From the UHGV virus genome UHGV-1789659: DNA of 47,750 bases; one strand, 5' to 3'. The notes beneath the pieces were generated by a model. That model made no database searches. It saw only the letters and a list, made by a program, of their open reading frames with translations, and had not been told where the DNA came from. A program made the translations under genes and the position numbers. Origin of the DNA: a virus. Positions 28,286 to 36,572 of this stretch are shown here, one piece after another. Each line of letters begins with the position of its first letter. The stretch's first letter is position 1.

Positions 28286-31200
28286 ATGTGGTACAGGGAA
28301 GGTACTATCACATTTACACAGGGTAGCAATACTCTGGTTGGTGTTGGAACAGCCTGGAACGTAACAGCTAATGGTGTGTTGCCGGGCATGATCGTCATTG
28401 GTCCCGACAATAAGCTGTATGAGATCAAGCGCGTAACAAGCGATACGAATATTGTTCTCTCAGAACCTTATACCGGCGAAACTCAGTCTGAAGTTCCGTG
28501 CCGAATCATTACGACCTATGAAGGCGACTTAACACAGTTTAGCGCGCGCTTTACTGCGCTAATGTCGCGTATGTCGGCTGATTCCAAGTCCATGCGCAGT
28601 TGGTTGACTGCTCTGGATGAGGTGACAATCGAGCGTGAAGACGGTACAGAAGTGACCGTTAAGCCGCTAATGCAGATCGTCAACGAGCACAACGAAAACG
28701 TTGAGTGGTATAAAAATAACACCGACGCGATAGACGCTGCTGGCGACAAAGCTCGTGAGGCGGCGGCCAGTGCTGCCGCAGCAGCAGAAAGCGCCAATAC
28801 CGCTGGAGAAAAAGCCTCTCAAGCGTCTCAAAGTGCATCCGCTGCGGCTTCCTCACAAAGTGCTGCAAGTGCGAGTGCAACTGCTGCGAAAAAATCTGAA
28901 ACGAACGCAGAAGCCGCAAAAGAAGCGGCAGCAGAATCAGCGTCTGTAGCATCGACCAAAGCATCGGAGGCTGCAACATCTGCGTCCAGTGCCTCTGCAT
29001 CTAAGGATGCAGCCAAAGCATCAGAGACTAACGCTTCATCGAGTGCAAACGCGGCGGCATCATCGGCAACAGAAGCTGCAAATTCGTCTAAGGCAGCAAA
29101 AACGTCAGAGACAAACGCAAAAGCATCTGAAAAGGCAGCCGAACAGAGTGCATCGTCTGCAAACAGTTCGAAATCTGCGGCAGAAGCGTCAGCCAGCGCA
29201 GCCTCAGCAAGTGCGGATAGTGCTTCATCGAGTGCAACTGCGGCAGGAAGAGCTGCGGAAAGCGCGTCTTCATCCGCGACAACAGCTACCACAAAAGCGA
29301 CAGAGGCGACGAGTCAGGCTACAGCTGCTAAAAATTCAGCATCGGCAGCAAAAACCTCTGAAACAAATGCAAAGGCCTCAGAAGACAATGCTGCTTCCTC
29401 TAAGGCGGCAGCTGCTGAATCTGCAAGTTCTGCGTCTGCATCAGCCACCTCGGCATCCGCTTCAAAAGATGAGGCGACCAAGCAGGCATCAGCAGCGAAG
29501 GGTAGTGCTTCAACGGCATCCACAAAGGCAACAGAGGCGGCAGGCAGTGCGACGGCTGCATCTCAGAGCAAAACTGCTGCCGAATCTGCTGCGACTCGTG
29601 CAGAAGCTGCTGCTGATCGTGCTGAAGAGATTGCCGGTGCAGTTGCGATGGAAGACGCAAGCCTTACAACTAAAGGTGTTGTGAAACTTAGTAGTGCGAC
29701 AGATAGCACCAGTGAATCACTGGCTGCAACTCCAAAGGCAGTTAAAGCTGCGAATGACAATGCGAATAGCCGATTGGCGAAGAACCAGAATGGTGCTGAT
29801 ATACCAGGTAAGGATACCTTCACGAAAAATATTGGCGCTGGTCGAGCATTTGGAGGCTCTGTAAGCACAACAGCAGGAAACTGGACTACGGCACAGTTTG
29901 TCGAATGGTTGGACTCTCAAGGGGCCTTTAATCATCCGTACTGGATGTGTAAAGGCTCATGGTCGTATGGCAACAACAAAATCATTACTGATACTGGTTG
30001 TGGCGATATTCATCTTGCCGGGGCAGTAATTGAGGTAATGGGGATAAAGTCCGCAATGACGATCCGCGTTACCACACCAACAACATCTAGCGGTGGTGGT
30101 ACTGCTAACGCTCAATTTACTTATATTAACCACGGGACAGATTATTCTCCAGGCTGGCGACGAGACTACAATACAAAATACAAACCTACGCCATCGGATA
30201 TAGGTGCATTATCAACATCAGGAGGGACGGTTTCAGGTCCGTTGTCTGTTACTGGTGGGTTAACTGGTTCATTGAATGGCAATGCGAGTACCGCCACGAA
30301 ATTGCAGACTGCAAGAACTATCGGCGGCGTGGCCTTCGATGGATCTGCGAACATAAATTTGCCTGGTGTAAACACGGCAGGTAATCAGAGCACCACTGGT
30401 AATGCCGCAACCGCTACAAAACTTCAAACGGCAAGAACGATTGGTGGCGTTTCATTTAACGGAACTGCCAACATCGACTTGCCCGGAGTTAACAAAGCTG
30501 GCAACCAAAGCACCACAGGTAATGCTGCTACAGCTACTAAATTGCAGACAGCAAGAACCATCGGTGGTGTTAGCTTCGATGGCACTGCGAATATTAATTT
30601 GCCTGGTGTTAATGCTGCCGGTAATCAGAACACTACCGGTAACGCGGCTACAGCGACCAAGTTGCAAACTGCGAGAACTATTAACGGGGTGTCGTTTAAC
30701 GGCTCTGCGAATATTTCGATACCAACAATTACGTCCAGAGGACGCGTTACTGCGCTCACAGGCACAACGCAAGGCGCTACTACTGGATTGCAGATGTACG
30801 AGGCATATAACAACGGCTATCCTTCGACTTACGGGAATGTGCTTCATCTTAAGGGGGCAACAGCCGTTGGTGAAGGCGAGTTGTTCATAGGTTGGAGCGG
30901 TACAAGTGGCGCTCATGCACCTGTACATGTACGTTCGCGACGAGATACTGATACAGCCAGTTGGTCAGAGTGGGCGCAAGTTTATACGTCCAAAGACTCA
31001 ATTCCAGGTGTCAATGCCACCGGTAATCAGAACACTACTGGCAATGCAGCATCAGCAACGAAGTTGCAAACTGCCAGAACAATTGGAGGTGTATCGTTTA
31101 ATGGTACCGCCAATATTAACTTGCCGGGCGTCAATATAGCGGGTAATCAGAATACGACTGGTAACGCTGCTTCAGCCACGAAGTTACAAACGGCTCGTAC

Positions 31201-31813
31201 TATTGGTGGTGTTAGTTTTAACGGTACAGCCAATATTAACTTACCTGGTGTGAATACGACCGGTAATCAGAACACTACTGGTAATGCTGCAACCGCCACA
31301 AAATTGCAGACAGCAAGGAAAATTGCTGGTGTGGCGTTTGATGGCTCTGCCGATATAACTTTGACTGCGGCTAACCTTAATGCTTATACGAAAACAGAGG
31401 TAACAAACCTTCTCAGTTCCTATGTGAAGAGTAGTTCTCTTCCAAGCATGACTGTGCGAACTTCCTCTGTTTCTGGTGGGGATATGGGCATGAGTTTGTC
31501 CACATTCATTAGCCACCTTAAATCAAATGGGGCATTTAGCAAAAGTTATTGGATTGGCTTTGGCGATGCTATGGGATTCAATGCTGGCAGTATCAACAAT
31601 ATAACGGGATTTGGTGCTGTAGAATTAGCAGAATCCATAATCGAAGTTTTTAATCTACCGAATGGTGATTATACAATTCGTTTAACGACGTCACACAAAG
31701 CTGACTACGGTGGGATTACAAACGCAATCCTCGTTTATCACTACCGCAGTAATAGAAACCCGACAGGTCAATGGCTTAAATTTGCCGGTACTCTTGGGGC
31801 TACAAACAACTGA
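28286..31813 (+). CDS. side tail fibre protein (Stf-like) with Ala/Ser-rich region and tail-fibre repeats
   Basis: AAKTSETNAKAS-type low-complexity region as in lambda Stf (recalled); eight copies of a roughly 40-aa repeat NQ.TTGNAATATKLQTARTIGGV.F.G.ANI.LPGVN. Confidence 0.8.
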   Translation: MWYREGTITFTQGSNTLVGVGTAWNVTANGVLPGMIVIGPDNKLYEIKRVTSDTNIVLSEPYTGETQSEVPCRIITTYEGDLTQFSARFTALMSRMSADSKSMRSWLTALDEVTIEREDGTEVTVKPLMQIVNEHNENVEWYKNNTDAIDAAGDKAREAAASAAAAAESANTAGEKASQASQSASAAASSQSAASASATAAKKSETNAEAAKEAAAESASVASTKASEAATSASSASASKDAAKASETNASSSANAAASSATEAANSSKAAKTSETNAKASEKAAEQSASSANSSKSAAEASASAASASADSASSSATAAGRAAESASSSATTATTKATEATSQATAAKNSASAAKTSETNAKASEDNAASSKAAAAESASSASASATSASASKDEATKQASAAKGSASTASTKATEAAGSATAASQSKTAAESAATRAEAAADRAEEIAGAVAMEDASLTTKGVVKLSSATDSTSESLAATPKAVKAANDNANSRLAKNQNGADIPGKDTFTKNIGAGRAFGGSVSTTAGNWTTAQFVEWLDSQGAFNHPYWMCKGSWSYGNNKIITDTGCGDIHLAGAVIEVMGIKSAMTIRVTTPTTSSGGGTANAQFTYINHGTDYSPGWRRDYNTKYKPTPSDIGALSTSGGTVSGPLSVTGGLTGSLNGNASTATKLQTARTIGGVAFDGSANINLPGVNTAGNQSTTGNAATATKLQTARTIGGVSFNGTANIDLPGVNKAGNQSTTGNAATATKLQTARTIGGVSFDGTANINLPGVNAAGNQNTTGNAATATKLQTARTINGVSFNGSANISIPTITSRGRVTALTGTTQGATTGLQMYEAYNNGYPSTYGNVLHLKGATAVGEGELFIGWSGTSGAHAPVHVRSRRDTDTASWSEWAQVYTSKDSIPGVNATGNQNTTGNAASATKLQTARTIGGVSFNGTANINLPGVNIAGNQNTTGNAASATKLQTARTIGGVSFNGTANINLPGVNTTGNQNTTGNAATATKLQTARKIAGVAFDGSADITLTAANLNAYTKTEVTNLLSSYVKSSSLPSMTVRTSSVSGGDMGMSLSTFISHLKSNGAFSKSYWIGFGDAMGFNAGSINNITGFGAVELAESIIEVFNLPNGDYTIRLTTSHKADYGGITNAILVYHYRSNRNPTGQWLKFAGTLGATNN

Positions 31814-32016: not shown

Positions 32017-32340
32017 ATGTCGAACGAGATGGCGGGCGTTACAACAGAGCAAGTTGAGCGTATTGCCGCGATCGTTGCTCGGGAGGTTGTTGGCAAATTA
32101 GGTAAAGAGCTACGTGAAGAAATTGGCCAGGAGGTCAATGATCAGCTGAAAACCTACTTTGGTGATATGACCCCGGCGCAACATAGTATTCAACACTCTA
32201 ATTTGGACAAACTCCTTAATCGGTTAGATTCCATCTCCAGTGGGTTCTTTGGCGGCATTGTTTCTAAAATAACGTCGTTCATTATTACTGCACTGCTTTT
32301 GGGATTAGCCGCGTATGGCGTAAAAAATGGACTGCAATAA
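32017..32340 (+). CDS. putative holin-like membrane protein (single C-terminal TM helix)
   Basis: 107-aa ORF with strong RBS (GGAGGAAAAC) directly upstream of the lysis genes; C-terminal hydrophobic helix ITSFIITALLLGLAAYGV. Confidence 0.35.
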   Translation: MSNEMAGVTTEQVERIAAIVAREVVGKLGKELREEIGQEVNDQLKTYFGDMTPAQHSIQHSNLDKLLNRLDSISSGFFGGIVSKITSFIITALLLGLAAYGVKNGLQ

Positions 32341-32353
32341 CAGGAGATCAAGG

Positions 32354-33046
32354 ATGAAGACTCCGAGAGGCATTCGTAATAATAACCCCGGTAATCTTGA
32401 TAAAGGATCACCGTGGCAAGGTCTGGTTGCGAATCCAGACGAACCGCGCTTTTGCACGTTTAAAGACCCTGTTTGGGGGATTCGTGCGCTGGCGGTGACT
32501 CTAATTACCTACCACGACAAACGTCGCGCAAAAGACGGCTCAAGTATCGATACCATTCGTGAAGTTATTGAACGTTGGGCACCGCCGAATGAAAACAACA
32601 CTGACGCCTACATTAATGAGGTGTCTAAAGCCGTTGGTGTAACCGCAGACATGATCATCGATCTGCATGATTACGACATCCTTAGACCTTTGGTTGAGGC
32701 AATCATTCGCCACGAGAATGGTCGAGGTCCACTAAAAACGCTGAACACCTGGTATGCGGCAGAAGTTATTGAGGAAGGTCTGCGTCGAGCTGGCGTCGTT
32801 AAGCCGGTGAAAACCGTGAAGGCTGTTCCTGTAACTAAAGAAACCGCAGGCGCAACTGTCACAGCAGGTATTGGTCTGGCGCAGCTTGCCGATGTTATGC
32901 CGCAGGTTTCCGCTGCTATGGATAAAGCACAAGGTCATATCTCTAGCGGGGATACAGTACGCATCATCTTCGGTATTGCCACTATTGTTGTGGCAGGATT
33001 CATTGCCTGGTCGCAGGTAAGAAAACACCAGAAAGGGATGGTCTAA
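32354..33046 (+). CDS. putative endolysin / cell-wall-active protein with C-terminal TM anchor (function uncertain)
   Basis: 230 aa from ATG 32354 (RBS CAGGAG); position between holin-like and spanin genes; conserved-looking GIRNNNPGNL box; C-terminal hydrophobic helix. No catalytic motif recognised by eye. Confidence 0.35.
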   Translation: MKTPRGIRNNNPGNLDKGSPWQGLVANPDEPRFCTFKDPVWGIRALAVTLITYHDKRRAKDGSSIDTIREVIERWAPPNENNTDAYINEVSKAVGVTADMIIDLHDYDILRPLVEAIIRHENGRGPLKTLNTWYAAEVIEEGLRRAGVVKPVKTVKAVPVTKETAGATVTAGIGLAQLADVMPQVSAAMDKAQGHISSGDTVRIIFGIATIVVAGFIAWSQVRKHQKGMV

Positions 33047-33261
33047 TATGCTAGGCAGCCTGATGATAAAGCTAAAAGTTGCTTTATTCATTGCCTGGTC
33101 GCAGGTAAGAAAACACCAGAAAGGGATGGTCTAATATGCTAGGCAGCCTGATGATAAAGCTAAAAGTTGCTTTATTCATTGCCTGGTCGCAGGTAAGAAA
33201 ACACCAGAAAGGGATGGTCTAATATGCTAGGCAGCCTGATGACAAAGCTAAAAGTTGCTTT
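32998..33261. repeat. 88-bp tandem repeat, three copies (two identical, third slightly diverged) across the endolysin/spanin junction
   Basis: Unit ATTCATTGCCTGGTCGCAGGTAAGAAAACACCAGAAAGGGATGGTCTAATATGCTAGGCAGCCTGATGATAAAGCTAAAAGTTGCTTT repeats at 32998, 33086 and 33174. Confidence 0.9.
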
Positions 33262-33475
33262 GATTACGCTGGCTGCCGTTCTTTTCGTTCTGGTCGGCGC
33301 TTACACGATGGGTGGGAATGCAGCACGACGAGCAATGGAAGAGAAGGCAAAACAGGAAGACAGAAAACGACTTCAAAACACAGTGGAAGTGGTGAATGAG
33401 ACGAGCAATAAAATACGTCAGAAAGATGCTTCTGCCGTTCATCGTGAGTTGTATGATAAGTGGGTGCGTCATTAA
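33224..33475 (+). CDS. i-spanin (Rz-like)
   Basis: N-terminal TM helix (ALITLAAVLFVLVGAYTMGG) followed by a charged segment; an embedded lipoprotein ORF overlaps the 3-prime end. Confidence 0.65.
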   Translation: MLGSLMTKLKVALITLAAVLFVLVGAYTMGGNAARRAMEEKAKQEDRKRLQNTVEVVNETSNKIRQKDASAVHRELYDKWVRH

Positions 33476-33611
33476 ACCACAAACCGCCAGCGTATTGTTC
33501 TGCGATGGAGCTGAGCCTATCTATATCAGCAATAATGATGTGATGACCGAAGAAACCGAACGCCAAATCCTTTTTCACAATACGATGGGAGAGAGAGTTT
33601 GCGGTTGGTGA
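33426..33611 (+). CDS. o-spanin (Rz1-like lipoprotein), overlapping the i-spanin in another frame
   Basis: Signal peptide with lipobox MLLPFIVSCMISG-C; in-frame ATG at 33426 inside the ORF-track ORF 33396..33611. Confidence 0.6.
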   Translation: MLLPFIVSCMISGCVIKPQTASVLFCDGAEPIYISNNDVMTEETERQILFHNTMGERVCGW

Positions 33612-33619
33612 TGCGAAGT

Positions 33620-33637
33620 TCCCCTCACTTGAGGGGA
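33620..33637. terminator. hairpin between convergent spanin and toxin genes
   Basis: CCCCTC-ACTT-GAGGGG stem-loop; flanking T/A runs are weak. Confidence 0.4.
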
Positions 33638-33642
33638 GTACA

Positions 33643-34164
33643 TTATTCTTCGAACAATTTTTCGATAGATTTTGTAGGATAGAACAAAGAACGCTCGTTG
33701 TTACCAACCAGCTGGATAAAGCCTAAACTTTTATAAAACGCCTTGGCTTTGTCATTTAACGCCTCAACGAAAAGTCCATGAATGCCTACAGCAAGAGATG
33801 CATTGTACACAACCCGCATTGCATGTGTTACAAGCATTGAGCCAAATCCTTGACCTTGAAGGGACTTGTCCAAAGCCAGCCTACCCAAAGTAACACTTGG
33901 AACATTCCGATAAGGAACCTTCTTTTGCTGGCTTCTTGAAGGTAAGGACTCCTTTTCAAAGCAGCTGCCTGACAAAGTGTAATACCCTAACACTTTTGGT
34001 CTGTCTTCTTTAGTGCAAAGCACATAAGCGCGAAGAATTTTTCCCTCATGCTGCCTTTTTAAGTGGTTGGTTAAAAAGGCATTTAGTGATTCTTCACCGC
34101 AATCAAAACCATTCAAATCATAATCTTTCTCTCCAGAGAAAATTTCTATCTTTATATTATCCAC
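33643..34164 (-). CDS. GNAT-family acetyltransferase toxin (TacT/KacT/AtaT-type)
   Basis: GNAT motif A QGQGFGSMLV; about 170 aa; immediately downstream of a DUF1778-type antitoxin ORF on the same strand; GTG start. Confidence 0.75.
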   Translation of the reverse strand: MDNIKIEIFSGEKDYDLNGFDCGEESLNAFLTNHLKRQHEGKILRAYVLCTKEDRPKVLGYYTLSGSCFEKESLPSRSQQKKVPYRNVPSVTLGRLALDKSLQGQGFGSMLVTHAMRVVYNASLAVGIHGLFVEALNDKAKAFYKSLGFIQLVGNNERSLFYPTKSIEKLFEE

Positions 34165-34171
34165 GAGTAAA

Positions 34172-34441
34172 CTACTCCATGCTTTTCAGACGATCAGCAG
34201 CTCGTTTCAGCTTGTCGTTCGGTGCCGGAGGATTGCTTATAGCGTCCATAACCAGATTCCAGGATTCTTCATTCAGAACTAGTCTACGGTGTTGCTCTAT
34301 AACTTTCACGGCACGTTCAGATGCACTGCTAACCATAAACTGAGTAATGCTCTGGTTAGACATTGCGGCAGCTTCCTCGATGATGCTTTTATCGTCATCG
34401 GTTAATCTCAAATCGATGCGCTGCTTTTTTAGTGCTGACAT
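34172..34441 (-). CDS. DUF1778-type RHH antitoxin (TacA/KacA-like)
   Basis: Start set at MSALKKQRIDLRLTDDDKSI after an AGGAGG RBS (plus-strand CCTCCT at 34446-34451); the N-terminal RIDLRL plus helical region is typical of DUF1778 antitoxins paired with GNAT toxins. Confidence 0.7.
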   Translation of the reverse strand: MSALKKQRIDLRLTDDDKSIIEEAAAMSNQSITQFMVSSASERAVKVIEQHRRLVLNEESWNLVMDAISNPPAPNDKLKRAADRLKSME

Positions 34442-34710
34442 GTATTCCTCCTGATGGCCGTGATGTAGGAAGGCCATCAATCTCCTCTGTTCAAACTGAG
34501 TTTTCGACTCAAAAATTACTTTAAAAGGCTATAGCCCATTACGTGTGCATTATCAAATTGTGTACGGCATATCACCGTACTTGTAATATAGAGGTCATTG
34601 TTACTTTTTTCAACAGACAAATACAAGCTATGATTGCCAATTGTTAATCACAACCTACCATTTAACCTTTACACCGCAGCCGTAGGCATTTAGGCTATAT
34701 CACATATAAG

Positions 34711-34759: not shown

Positions 34760-35428
34760 ATGACCAAGATCTTTGTGGTTGGCGGCACAAAGGGCGGGCC
34801 TGGCAAATCCACCGTTGCCCAGCAAATTGCCGTTTGCCTGAAAGTCAAAAAGAAGAAGAAGGTTTATATCACTGATATAGATATTCAGCGCACGACAACA
34901 AGCTGGTGTGAAGACCGTCGGCAGAACGAAGACCTTGAGCTGATTCCTTTTGCATACGTTCAGGATGACATCATTAAGCACCTAAAATCGCTTCAGGGTA
35001 GAGCTGAGTTTGTCGTGGTAGATGCTGGTGGCTTTGACTCCGAAATTCAGCGACAAGCGATGCTGATGGCCGACGTTATCATTATCCCGCTGCGTCCTAA
35101 GCGTCGTGATTTGAAATCTCTGCGTGACATCGATCCTATTATCGACAATGTTCGTAATGTAAACAATAAAGTGAAGGTCCGCGCTGTCATGAACCAGTGC
35201 CCGGCTTTGCCATCACAAGTGTCTCGCATTCTGGCGGCTAAAGAGATTGTTGAGACGTTTGGCATCGAGTCTGCGCCAGTCAATCTATATAACCGCAACG
35301 TCTATGATGATGCGGAAGAGTCTGGTCGTTCTATCTTTGAAATGACCGGTAGCGAGCGCGACAAAAAGGCGGAAGCCGAGTTTGAAGAATTTGTAGATTA
35401 TCTGTTGAGTCTGGAGGAAGAAGAATAA
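34760..35428 (+). CDS. parA: ParA-family partition ATPase (small, type Ib-like)
   Basis: Deviant Walker A GGTKGGPGKST at the N-terminus; 222 aa; followed by a coupled small DNA-binding protein gene. Confidence 0.85.
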   Translation: MTKIFVVGGTKGGPGKSTVAQQIAVCLKVKKKKKVYITDIDIQRTTTSWCEDRRQNEDLELIPFAYVQDDIIKHLKSLQGRAEFVVVDAGGFDSEIQRQAMLMADVIIIPLRPKRRDLKSLRDIDPIIDNVRNVNNKVKVRAVMNQCPALPSQVSRILAAKEIVETFGIESAPVNLYNRNVYDDAEESGRSIFEMTGSERDKKAEAEFEEFVDYLLSLEEEE

Positions 35429-35787
35429 TGTCCATGAAAATGGGTGACCTAGCAAAGCGCAAAGAGCCTGATGCACCGGCTAAGAACACAACTCCTTTGC
35501 GCCAACCAGTCAGACCACAGGGACGCCCGACTCGTGGCAAAGAGAAAATTAAAAGCCGCACAATGTCACTGGAGGACGAATACTTCGAACTGCTGGAGAT
35601 GATGAAGTTCATCCCTCGCTTCGAGAAATTCACCCGCTCTGATGTGATTCGTGCTGCTATTTTCCATCTTGCGGAGAAGACACCGCAGGAAATCGAGGAC
35701 ATCGTGAAACTTAACGAGGCGATCACAGCTGCCGACGTTACGATGCGTACCGATGAAATTAAACGAGAGTTGATGAAGAAAGGTTGA
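35428..35787 (+). CDS. ParG-like RHH centromere-binding protein
   Basis: 119 aa; basic flexible N-terminus and C-terminal beta-alpha-alpha pattern (RTMSLEDEYFELLE...SDVIRAAIFHLAEK); TAATG coupling to parA. Confidence 0.6.
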   Translation: MSMKMGDLAKRKEPDAPAKNTTPLRQPVRPQGRPTRGKEKIKSRTMSLEDEYFELLEMMKFIPRFEKFTRSDVIRAAIFHLAEKTPQEIEDIVKLNEAITAADVTMRTDEIKRELMKKG

Positions 35788-35788
35788 C

Positions 35789-35818
35789 AAGAGAAGGCGT
35801 GATTAGACGCCTTCTCTT
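35789..35818 (+). terminator. 12-bp-stem hairpin after the partition operon
   Basis: AAGAGAAGGCGT-GATTAG-ACGCCTTCTCTT read directly. Confidence 0.5.
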
Positions 35819-35831
35819 AAAAGGTATATTT

Positions 35832-36572
35832 ATGCTTTACAAATATGTTGGAAGTAGCGTCCCGGAAGACACAATAAATTATTTAAAGTATTACTTAGAA
35901 GATGGGAAAATTCGAGATTTCAACGATCCTGCCGAGTTTAAAGTTAATTTTGATTATGATGCTGATATAGACGCCATTAAGAAAAGATTTTTTGAGCTTT
36001 GGCCTAATCATCACAATGATGAATTTGAACGCTGGTTATTGAGTCAAACAGAACATAGTCGCAGTTTTGATAACTATATGATTAGAACGACTTTTCTGCA
36101 GCGTCGGGGAGTTATTTGTTTGACAAAAAGACCAGATAATTATCTTATGTGGTCGCATTATGCGCATTCTCACTCTGGTTTTTGCATCGGATTTGATGAT
36201 GGTTTTATAAATGCGTTTGATGATGTTTTTTTTGTTCGCGGTGAGGTCAAATATTCCTCTGATGTTCCGGTTGTAAATTTTTTTACCGACTCAGCTAAAG
36301 AGATTGCAGCGGCTCTTTGCCTAAATAAAAGCGATGTCTGGGAATATGAAGAGGAGGTTAGAATCGTAACCGAGAATTGTGGCGTGAAATTATTTGATAA
36401 ATCCTTAATTAAGGAAATAACAATAGGTTGTAAGGCTAGCAGTCAACTTCAAAATTATGTTCATCAACTATTTGATTCAGGTATCGAAATCTACAAAATG
36501 AAGTGCCCTACAGGATCGTATAAGCTGGAAAAAATAAGATTAGAGAAAGATACTGATTTTCTTGGATACTAG
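35832..36572 (+). CDS. AT-rich orphan gene; hypothetical protein (possibly DUF2971-like, unverified)
   Basis: 246 aa from ATG 35832; visibly AT-rich versus neighbours; conserved-looking core LMWSHYAHSHSGFCIGFD...WEYEEEVRIV; bounded by hairpin and palindrome. Confidence 0.5.
   Translation: MLYKYVGSSVPEDTINYLKYYLEDGKIRDFNDPAEFKVNFDYDADIDAIKKRFFELWPNHHNDEFERWLLSQTEHSRSFDNYMIRTTFLQRRGVICLTKRPDNYLMWSHYAHSHSGFCIGFDDGFINAFDDVFFVRGEVKYSSDVPVVNFFTDSAKEIAAALCLNKSDVWEYEEEVRIVTENCGVKLFDKSLIKEITIGCKASSQLQNYVHQLFDSGIEIYKMKCPTGSYKLEKIRLEKDTDFLGY

Follow-up and report, generated by a model that had tools for sequence, protein, structure and literature searches.

The boundary between the endolysin and spanin genes of UHGV virus genome UHGV-1789659 carries a tandem array that spans the stop codon of one lysis gene and the start codon of the next, and this raises the question whether the array is a genuine expansion or a product of assembly and, if it is genuine, how it arose and whether it matters for lysis. 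The whole stretch of DNA analysed here, termed the window, comprises 47,750 nucleotides. A previous reading of this DNA from the sequence alone had left open whether the array was a real expansion or an assembly artefact; a real expansion is now favoured, since the same junction and the same linked T allele recur in a two-copy genome and in another three-copy contig, and a further contig breaks off where a k=31 assembly of a repeat would break. The array is very probably a genuine, recent and lineage-private tandem duplication of 88 bp that spans a gene boundary in the lysis operon of a phage-plasmid and was later expanded. It is an ordinary young tandem copy-number variant (VNTR-type), not a new biological system; slightly unusual are the boundary-spanning unit, its length, which fits the frame offset of the two genes, and the two copy numbers that were caught in near-identical genomes.

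Structure of the Repeat Array

TRF reported three head-to-tail copies of an 88-bp unit at positions 32998-33261 (period 88, 3.0 copies, 99% matches, score 521), and a second repeat-finding run returned the identical three units; together with a base-by-base comparison, these results bear out the tandem triplication that the sequence-only reading had placed at 32998, 33086 and 33174. The edges are exact, with period-88 identity extending from its first base at 32998 to its last base at 33261, and the unbroken run of 245 period-88 matches excludes chance. The constant 88-bp period of near-identical head-to-tail copies is accompanied by a single mismatch in 264 nt: units 1 and 2 agree base for base, and the third copy, previously described as slightly diverged, differs by exactly one substitution, a C at 33243 where the other two units have a T (33067 and 33155). 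Each unit consists of the last 15 sense codons of the endolysin gene with its TAA, one spacer base and codons 1-13 of the i-spanin gene, matching its earlier description as containing the last codons and stop of the upstream gene and the ATG of the spanin gene. The novel junction between units has a core in which GCTTT is joined directly to ATTCATT; its long form is GTTGCTTTATTCATTGCC. The possibility that the unit represents an RNA element or the end of a mobile element was rejected; an Rfam scan of the array yielded no match at E<=1, and no inverted repeats were found in it.

Lysis Operon and Flanking Genes

The array sits within a four-gene lysis operon that consists of a holin candidate, an endolysin, an i-spanin and an overlapping o-spanin (Table 1). 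The flanking genes, an Enc34-type endolysin and an overlapped two-component spanin, are ordinary representatives of known families; the labels endolysin and spanin, already assigned on first reading, are right because of the matches to phrog_873, to PDB 7Q47 and to the Rz-like families of PHROGs (about 1e-24), and because of the overlapped spanin architecture. The coding sequences of the endolysin and the i-spanin, and the 50 nt 5' of the spanin ATG, are unaltered by the array.

Table 1. Features of the lysis operon and of the 88-bp array, in window coordinates.
Feature	Position	Strand	Description
Holin candidate, 107 aa	32017-32340	+	First operon gene; phrog_5093 (function unknown), E 7e-69; Cyrano homologue annotated as holin
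Enc34-type endolysin, 230 aa	32354-33046	+	phrog_873 (endolysin), E 3.4e-88; PDB 7Q47, E 2.6e-54
Repeat unit 1	32998-33085	+	T allele at 33067; genuine endolysin 3' end, TAA at 33044-33046; start of mini-ORF 1
Mini-ORF 1, 28 aa, MLGSLMIKLKVALFIAWSQVRKHQKGMV	33048-33134	+	In ORF list; 50 nt upstream same as those of the spanin start
Repeat unit 2	33086-33173	+	T allele at 33155; identical to unit 1; novel junction at 33085/33086
Mini-ORF 2, identical to mini-ORF 1	33136-33222	+	In ORF list
Repeat unit 3	33174-33261	+	Ancestral C allele at 33243; genuine i-spanin start; second novel junction at 33173/33174
i-spanin (Rz-like), 83 aa	33224-33475	+	phrog_1026, E 7.8e-25; N-terminal TM at residues 11-31, hydropathy 2.38
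o-spanin (Rz1-like lipoprotein)	33396-33611	+	phrog_1275, E 1.2e-24; lipobox-like MISGC
Terminator-like hairpin, end of lysis operon	33618-33639	+	

The holin candidate has a C-terminal hydrophobic segment at residues 85-102. In the endolysin, for which an alternative start at 32327 would give 239 aa, residues 3-151 match the Enc34 endolysin structure (phmmer) and form a PHA02564-type N-terminal catalytic domain; a C-terminal TM domain is present by hydropathy, as a hydrophobic helix at residues 204-220 (KD 2.07). The architecture of an N-terminal catalytic domain followed by a C-terminal TMD has already been described for Enc34-type endolysins (PDB 7Q47; PMC8943055), which the protein in the window resembles in its catalytic-domain match and its C-terminal hydrophobic helix, and the cassettes are alike as well in containing a holin, an endolysin and overlapped spanins (PMC8943055). 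In contrast to the two-helix TMD of the Enc34 endolysin, the endolysin in the window has one strongly hydrophobic segment; a second helix is weakly indicated by a weak uncharged run at residues 164-176. This difference concerns the flanking gene, not the array.

The ATG of the i-spanin gene follows one base past a TAA, as it does in single-copy relatives. The o-spanin gene starts inside the i-spanin gene, overlaps its end (33475) out of frame and runs past it, although gene callers place its start later, at 33426; an i-spanin with an N-terminal TM segment and an out-of-frame o-spanin lipoprotein gene were thus both found, in the arrangement that defines the overlapped two-component spanin class and that is known from P2-like spanins (PMC6139136). 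There is no relevant difference from these systems, and the spanin genes of the window are untouched by the array.

Phage-Plasmid Context and Single-Copy Relatives

On nucleotide identity, the window can be assigned to the E. coli phage-plasmids of the SSU5/Cyrano/pECOH89 type: over the 1.7 kb around the array, identity is 97.7% with Escherichia phage Cyrano (pLF82) and 83% with Salmonella phage SSU5, and it reaches 98.5% with many E. coli plasmids of about 110 kb. The SSU5-like phage-plasmid family has been described previously (PMC7969092; PMC3999498; PMC9928086); Cyrano, a close single-copy relative, forms virions and responds to genotoxic stress by induction, and its copy number was measured at about 5.5 per cell (PMC9928086). 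The lysis cassettes of SSU5, Cyrano/pLF82 and pECOH89 share the gene order of the window through holin, endolysin, spanins and GNAT toxin. In these described members, however, the endolysin stop and the spanin start abut (TAA-T-ATG), and the 88-bp insertions occur in the lineage of the window only; the top phage and plasmid matches all extend over about 1525 nt against 1701 nt in the query, a difference of 2 x 88 nt.

With one 88-nt unit as the query, 210 records with 210 places were found in 5,426 complete E. coli genomes, all of them plasmid-borne, and 188 records with 189 places in PLSDB. Among the records with multiple places, the one followed up was an E. albertii plasmid; its second place was rejected as a tandem copy, and the cassette there is single copy. 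The ancestral boundary, with the ancestral allele, was recovered in 39 IMG/VR contigs, and the stop/start core was present in more than one copy in none of these 39 loci (37 have one core copy, and the other two loci end short of the core). A gapped-pattern scan of IMG/VR for other tandem duplications of the stop/start overlap, with periods of 68-98 and with the 39 contigs as a positive control, found none; in all 30 contigs retrieved by exact-protein look-ups, the endolysin and spanin genes abut. Related genomes, in which the sequence-only reading had proposed to compare copy numbers, thus carry a single copy in every relative examined outside the array-bearing lineage, and the comparison points clearly to one copy (endolysin TAA, one spacer base, spanin ATG) as the ancestral state. 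The exact 230-aa endolysin is indexed in 7,654 assembly-collection blocks and the exact holin in 10,294, and the single-copy cassette is thus extremely common, whereas the array is both derived and rare; the exact i-spanin is indexed in 140.

Array-Bearing Genomes

A 50-mer across the junction gave no megablast match in phages, plasmids or complete E. coli genomes, and an exact scan for the junction in IMG/VR and in the GTDB representative genomes was likewise without result; the sole match of the junction search outside the window was one metagenome contig, CDZM01013538.1 (GCA_001408775.1, 30 kb), which carries three units in the order T,T,C and shares 14.1 kb with the window at 100% identity. 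An ENA contig (ERZ27297116 k119_50845, here L009; 86.6 kb; reported in four samples) carries two units in the order T,C and shares both the junction and the T allele with the window. Compared with the flanks in the window, those of L009 show no substitutions and one 15-nt indel, the window having lost a segment at 35915/35916; the two are therefore distinct genomes. The array-bearing contigs are all short-read-style assemblies and apparently represent one clone, nine contigs having the exact 1175-aa tail fibre in common; the samples are not necessarily independent, and the copy counts are assembly-derived. A literature search for GCA_001408775.1/CDZM01, ERZ27297116 and ERR2738909 found no mention of them, and a look-up of the window's DUF2971 allele, which has a 5-residue deletion, for further three-copy contigs found nothing on record.

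Mini-ORFs and Predicted Effects on Lysis

The spanin frame lies at +1 relative to the endolysin frame, and 88 equals 1 modulo 3, so that each extra unit reads as a 28-codon ORF. Each mini-ORF begins at an exact duplicate of the spanin RBS and ATG and terminates at a duplicated endolysin TAA, with a single base between this stop and the following ATG; judged from these features, the mini-ORF starts should be used if the spanin start is used. The two 28-aa ORFs, including their sequence, had been put forward on first reading and are present in the program-made ORF list; in their peptide, residues 1-13 of the spanin (with T7I) are followed by the 15 C-terminal residues of the endolysin. The accompanying claim, that the spanin N-terminus is fused to a C-terminal TM tail of the endolysin, holds for the existence of the chimeric ORFs but not for the TM tail: the peptide keeps three residues of the spanin helix and only four of the endolysin helix, its best 19-residue KD value is 1.41 (the cut-off applied was 1.6), it has no uncharged run of at least 10 residues, and two Lys residues break up its hydrophobic stretch, leaving it without a full TM segment. 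No PHROG or Pfam family matched the peptide, and neither its exact sequence (in the I or the T form) nor a 31-aa antisense ORF was present in a collection of about 15 billion protein sequences. A membrane-active lysis or toxin peptide (holin/antiholin-like, or type I toxin-like) was considered as the product and rejected; the peptide has no membrane-length hydrophobic segment and no homologues. Most likely, the mini-ORF peptides are by-products and serve no function themselves. As a concept, the locus illustrates that a boundary duplication can spare both genes and yet yield chimeric mini-ORFs that look translated.

A relay of stop/start junctions through the extra units would still bring ribosomes to the genuine spanin start, and the longer relay perhaps causes a modest shift in spanin dosage. 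Occlusion of the spanin RBS by the array was rejected; partition-function folding predicts accessibilities of the spanin initiation region of 0.36, 0.66 and 0.61 for one, two and three copies, with no drop in the two- or three-copy context. As the folding is a model only, no conclusion is based on it. The rarity and youth of the array and the properties of the peptide point to a probable net effect on lysis between neutral and mild.

A stronger effect would be expected if the array were an adaptive, copy-number-variable tuner of lysis, in which the relays and the additional 176 nt of spacing shift the dosage of i- and o-spanin relative to the endolysin, or in which the cationic-hydrophobic peptides act on the membrane or on lysis proteins, and in which the expansion from two to three copies was selected. 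The mini-ORFs inherit an intact and presumably functional translation-initiation region; near-identical genomes differ in copy number; the sole substitution is non-synonymous and raises the hydrophobicity of the peptide; and the C-terminal TM region of related endolysins is bacteriostatic on its own (PMC8943055), although the peptide encoded here, with its four residues of the endolysin helix, lacks a segment of TM length and has no homologues anywhere searched (PHROG, Pfam and the protein collection). The 88-bp period also retains the TAA-N-ATG relay, even though the nearest microhomology, GATT, would give 89 bp; T7I and a join one nucleotide off GATT that keeps the relay could be a hint of selection. 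Yet an 89-bp version would permit reinitiation too, with the stop 4 nt past the next ATG, and a single substitution gives no power to infer selection. Since the copies are essentially identical, the array is young and without a record of conservation, and it is limited to one clone-like lineage, against a single-copy cassette in thousands of assembly-collection blocks; adaptive tuning is accordingly considered very unlikely. Likewise very unlikely would be the birth of a small gene in progress, in which a ready-to-translate 28-codon chimera gained T7I and owes its amplification to an adjustment of spanin dosage or lysis timing by the peptide or by the lengthened relay. New insight into lysis regulation would follow from the array only on proof that lysis is altered by the mini-ORFs or by the additional stop/start relays.

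Probable Origin and Expansion of the Array

The variable position bears on the history of the array. All single-copy relatives fetched carry C; the T allele occurs in the extra units only, and in both the (T,C) and the (T,T,C) form C is confined to the final unit, which leads into the genuine spanin. Genomes that are near-identical and have the same junction differ in copy number, with two units in L009 and three in the window and in CDZM01013538.1. The 15-nt segment that is missing from the window is present in the two-copy genome and in five single-copy relatives, which makes the three-copy window the more derived form and fits an order of (T,C) before (T,T,C).

On the preferred reading, a private duplication followed by expansion, the simplest path would have three steps: one illegitimate join without microhomology that produced a (C,C) array; a C>T substitution in the upstream copy that changed it to (T,C); and an expansion to (T,T,C), either through mispairing of slipped strands or through unequal exchange between the 88-bp units. 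Tandem duplication through an illegitimate join, with later slipped-strand or unequal exchange between direct repeats, is known from gene amplification in bacteria, plasmids and phages and from minisatellite/VNTR loci, and a multicopy state favours repeat slippage and unequal exchange. The array resembles such loci in its identical head-to-tail units, the reuse of one junction, the single-copy ancestor, the occurrence of two and three copies in near-identical genomes, and the multicopy replicon. It differs from them in that the unit straddles a gene boundary, instead of comprising a whole gene or an intragenic repeat; in that its length of 1 modulo 3 fits the frame offset, which leaves the genes intact and creates chimeric mini-ORFs; and in that the founding junction is without microhomology. 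The third step is plausible on a multicopy replicon, if the 5.5 copies per cell of Cyrano (PMC9928086) are taken as a guide.

The founding join had been attributed, on first reading, to a short homology between the two genes, and a recombinational origin could take two forms, homology-driven unequal recombination between the TM-coding segments of the endolysin and the spanin, or import from a co-resident relative with the T allele. Both breakpoints do lie in coding sequence for TM helices, with superficially alike strings (GTTG...GATT...CTGG). Local alignment of the breakpoint flanks, however, scores 6 against a shuffle mean of 6.6, and 79% of the shuffles score as high or higher; the similarity is at chance level, and the claimed homology is therefore unsupported. 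In-register microhomology at the founding junction amounts to 0 nt; the 4-nt GATT match is shifted by one base relative to the junction, and a GATT-mediated join would have given an 89-bp period. A possible donor, in the form of a single-copy T allele, was found neither in the IMG/VR search nor among the single-copy relatives fetched. Recombination of either form is thus highly improbable as the source of the array.

Assembly and Copy Number

In de Bruijn simulations at k=31, the presence of at least two units is both necessary and sufficient for the left-flank unitig to halt exactly 30 nt into the array. A Logan contig, ERR2738909_303, which encodes a 1175-aa tail fibre identical to that of the window (this exact protein is common to nine contigs), ends at 33027, exactly 30 nt into unit 1, and gives the sole, indirect support for the array at the level of reads. 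A two-unit (T,C) array is unambiguous at k=119, and the uninterrupted 86.6-kb contig L009 is therefore credible; a (T,T,C) array is unresolvable below k ~159. Least probable of all the readings is a pure assembly artefact, with a single copy in the true molecule and the array created by looping through, or wrongly joining, reads during assembly. In favour of it, tandem repeats are mishandled by short-read assemblers, three copies demand the large k given above, and the array is missing from all finished genomes and plasmids. Against it, at least two assemblies, made in different ways and from distinct genomes, share the junction and the T allele; the output of a third pipeline stops at just the point expected of a repeat with two or more copies; and the two-copy form is free of ambiguity at the k noted above. 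Single-copy reads give an assembler no means of inventing the junction together with a linked private SNP, and the duplication is therefore judged to be real.

Of the numbers in this analysis, the exact count of three is the least certain; as three copies are unresolvable at smaller k, the source sample could hold three or more copies, or a mixture. More generally, short-read assemblies can break or mis-count at this cassette. In practical terms, the array offers a copy-number-variable marker, sizeable by PCR, of one sub-lineage within a very common family of E. coli phage-plasmids.

Variable regions around the lysis operon

The 1175-aa tail-fibre ORF contains two tandem-repeat blocks (30299-30678 and 31007-31332), built from a 120-nt unit (40 aa) at 72-75% identity, together with a long, low-complexity region rich in Ala and Ser. 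Since the exact protein was limited to nine contigs, it serves as a marker of the array-bearing lineage; fibre length at this position differs greatly among relatives. The toxin-antitoxin pair occupies a variable slot adjoining the lysis cassette: many relatives instead carry a pair of ORFs on the plus strand, of 127 and 250 aa or of 139 and 257 aa.

Features flanking the lysis operon in the window
Feature	Coordinates	Strand	Position
Tail-fibre ORF, 1175 aa	28286-31813	+	
GNAT-family toxin (173 aa) and TacA/DUF1778-type antitoxin	33643-34480	-	directly downstream of lysis operon
ParA-like ATPase	34760-35428		after the toxin-antitoxin pair
DUF2971-like ORF	35784-36572	+	

Within the DUF2971-like ORF, 15 nt (GCAACTCGTCCGAAT), equivalent to five in-frame codons, are missing from the window at 35915/35916. 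The deletion is derived, because the segment is retained in L009, the near-identical relative with two array units, and in five single-copy relatives (L014, L015, L045, L046, and L053); an exact-protein look-up for the version with the five-residue deletion returned no record outside the window. The metagenome contig with three array units, CDZM01013538.1, ends at window position 35880, 35 nt upstream of the deletion site; allele heterogeneity in the source sample might account for this contig end.

Endolysin and lysis cassette

Two in-frame ATG codons are available as starts for the endolysin, at 32327 (239 aa) and 32354 (230 aa). The longer form overlaps the holin stop, and just one public record calls it; almost everywhere else the shorter form is called, and the alignment to 7Q47 begins at residue 3 of this 230-aa form. 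The C-terminal transmembrane domain of the Enc34 endolysin has been described as two-helix (PMC8943055); in contrast, the only strongly hydrophobic segment of the window endolysin is the last one, at residues 204-220, whereas the earlier segment (residues 164-176) is a weak run rich in Ala, Gly, and Thr. According to PMC8943055, it is not known by what route a C-terminally anchored endolysin enters the periplasm.

The 1.7-kb lysis query matched two separate locations in NZ_CP099896.1, a 124.5-kb Escherichia albertii plasmid; since the lysis cassette at 111.6-112.9 kb of this record is single-copy, the second match location lies elsewhere in the record.
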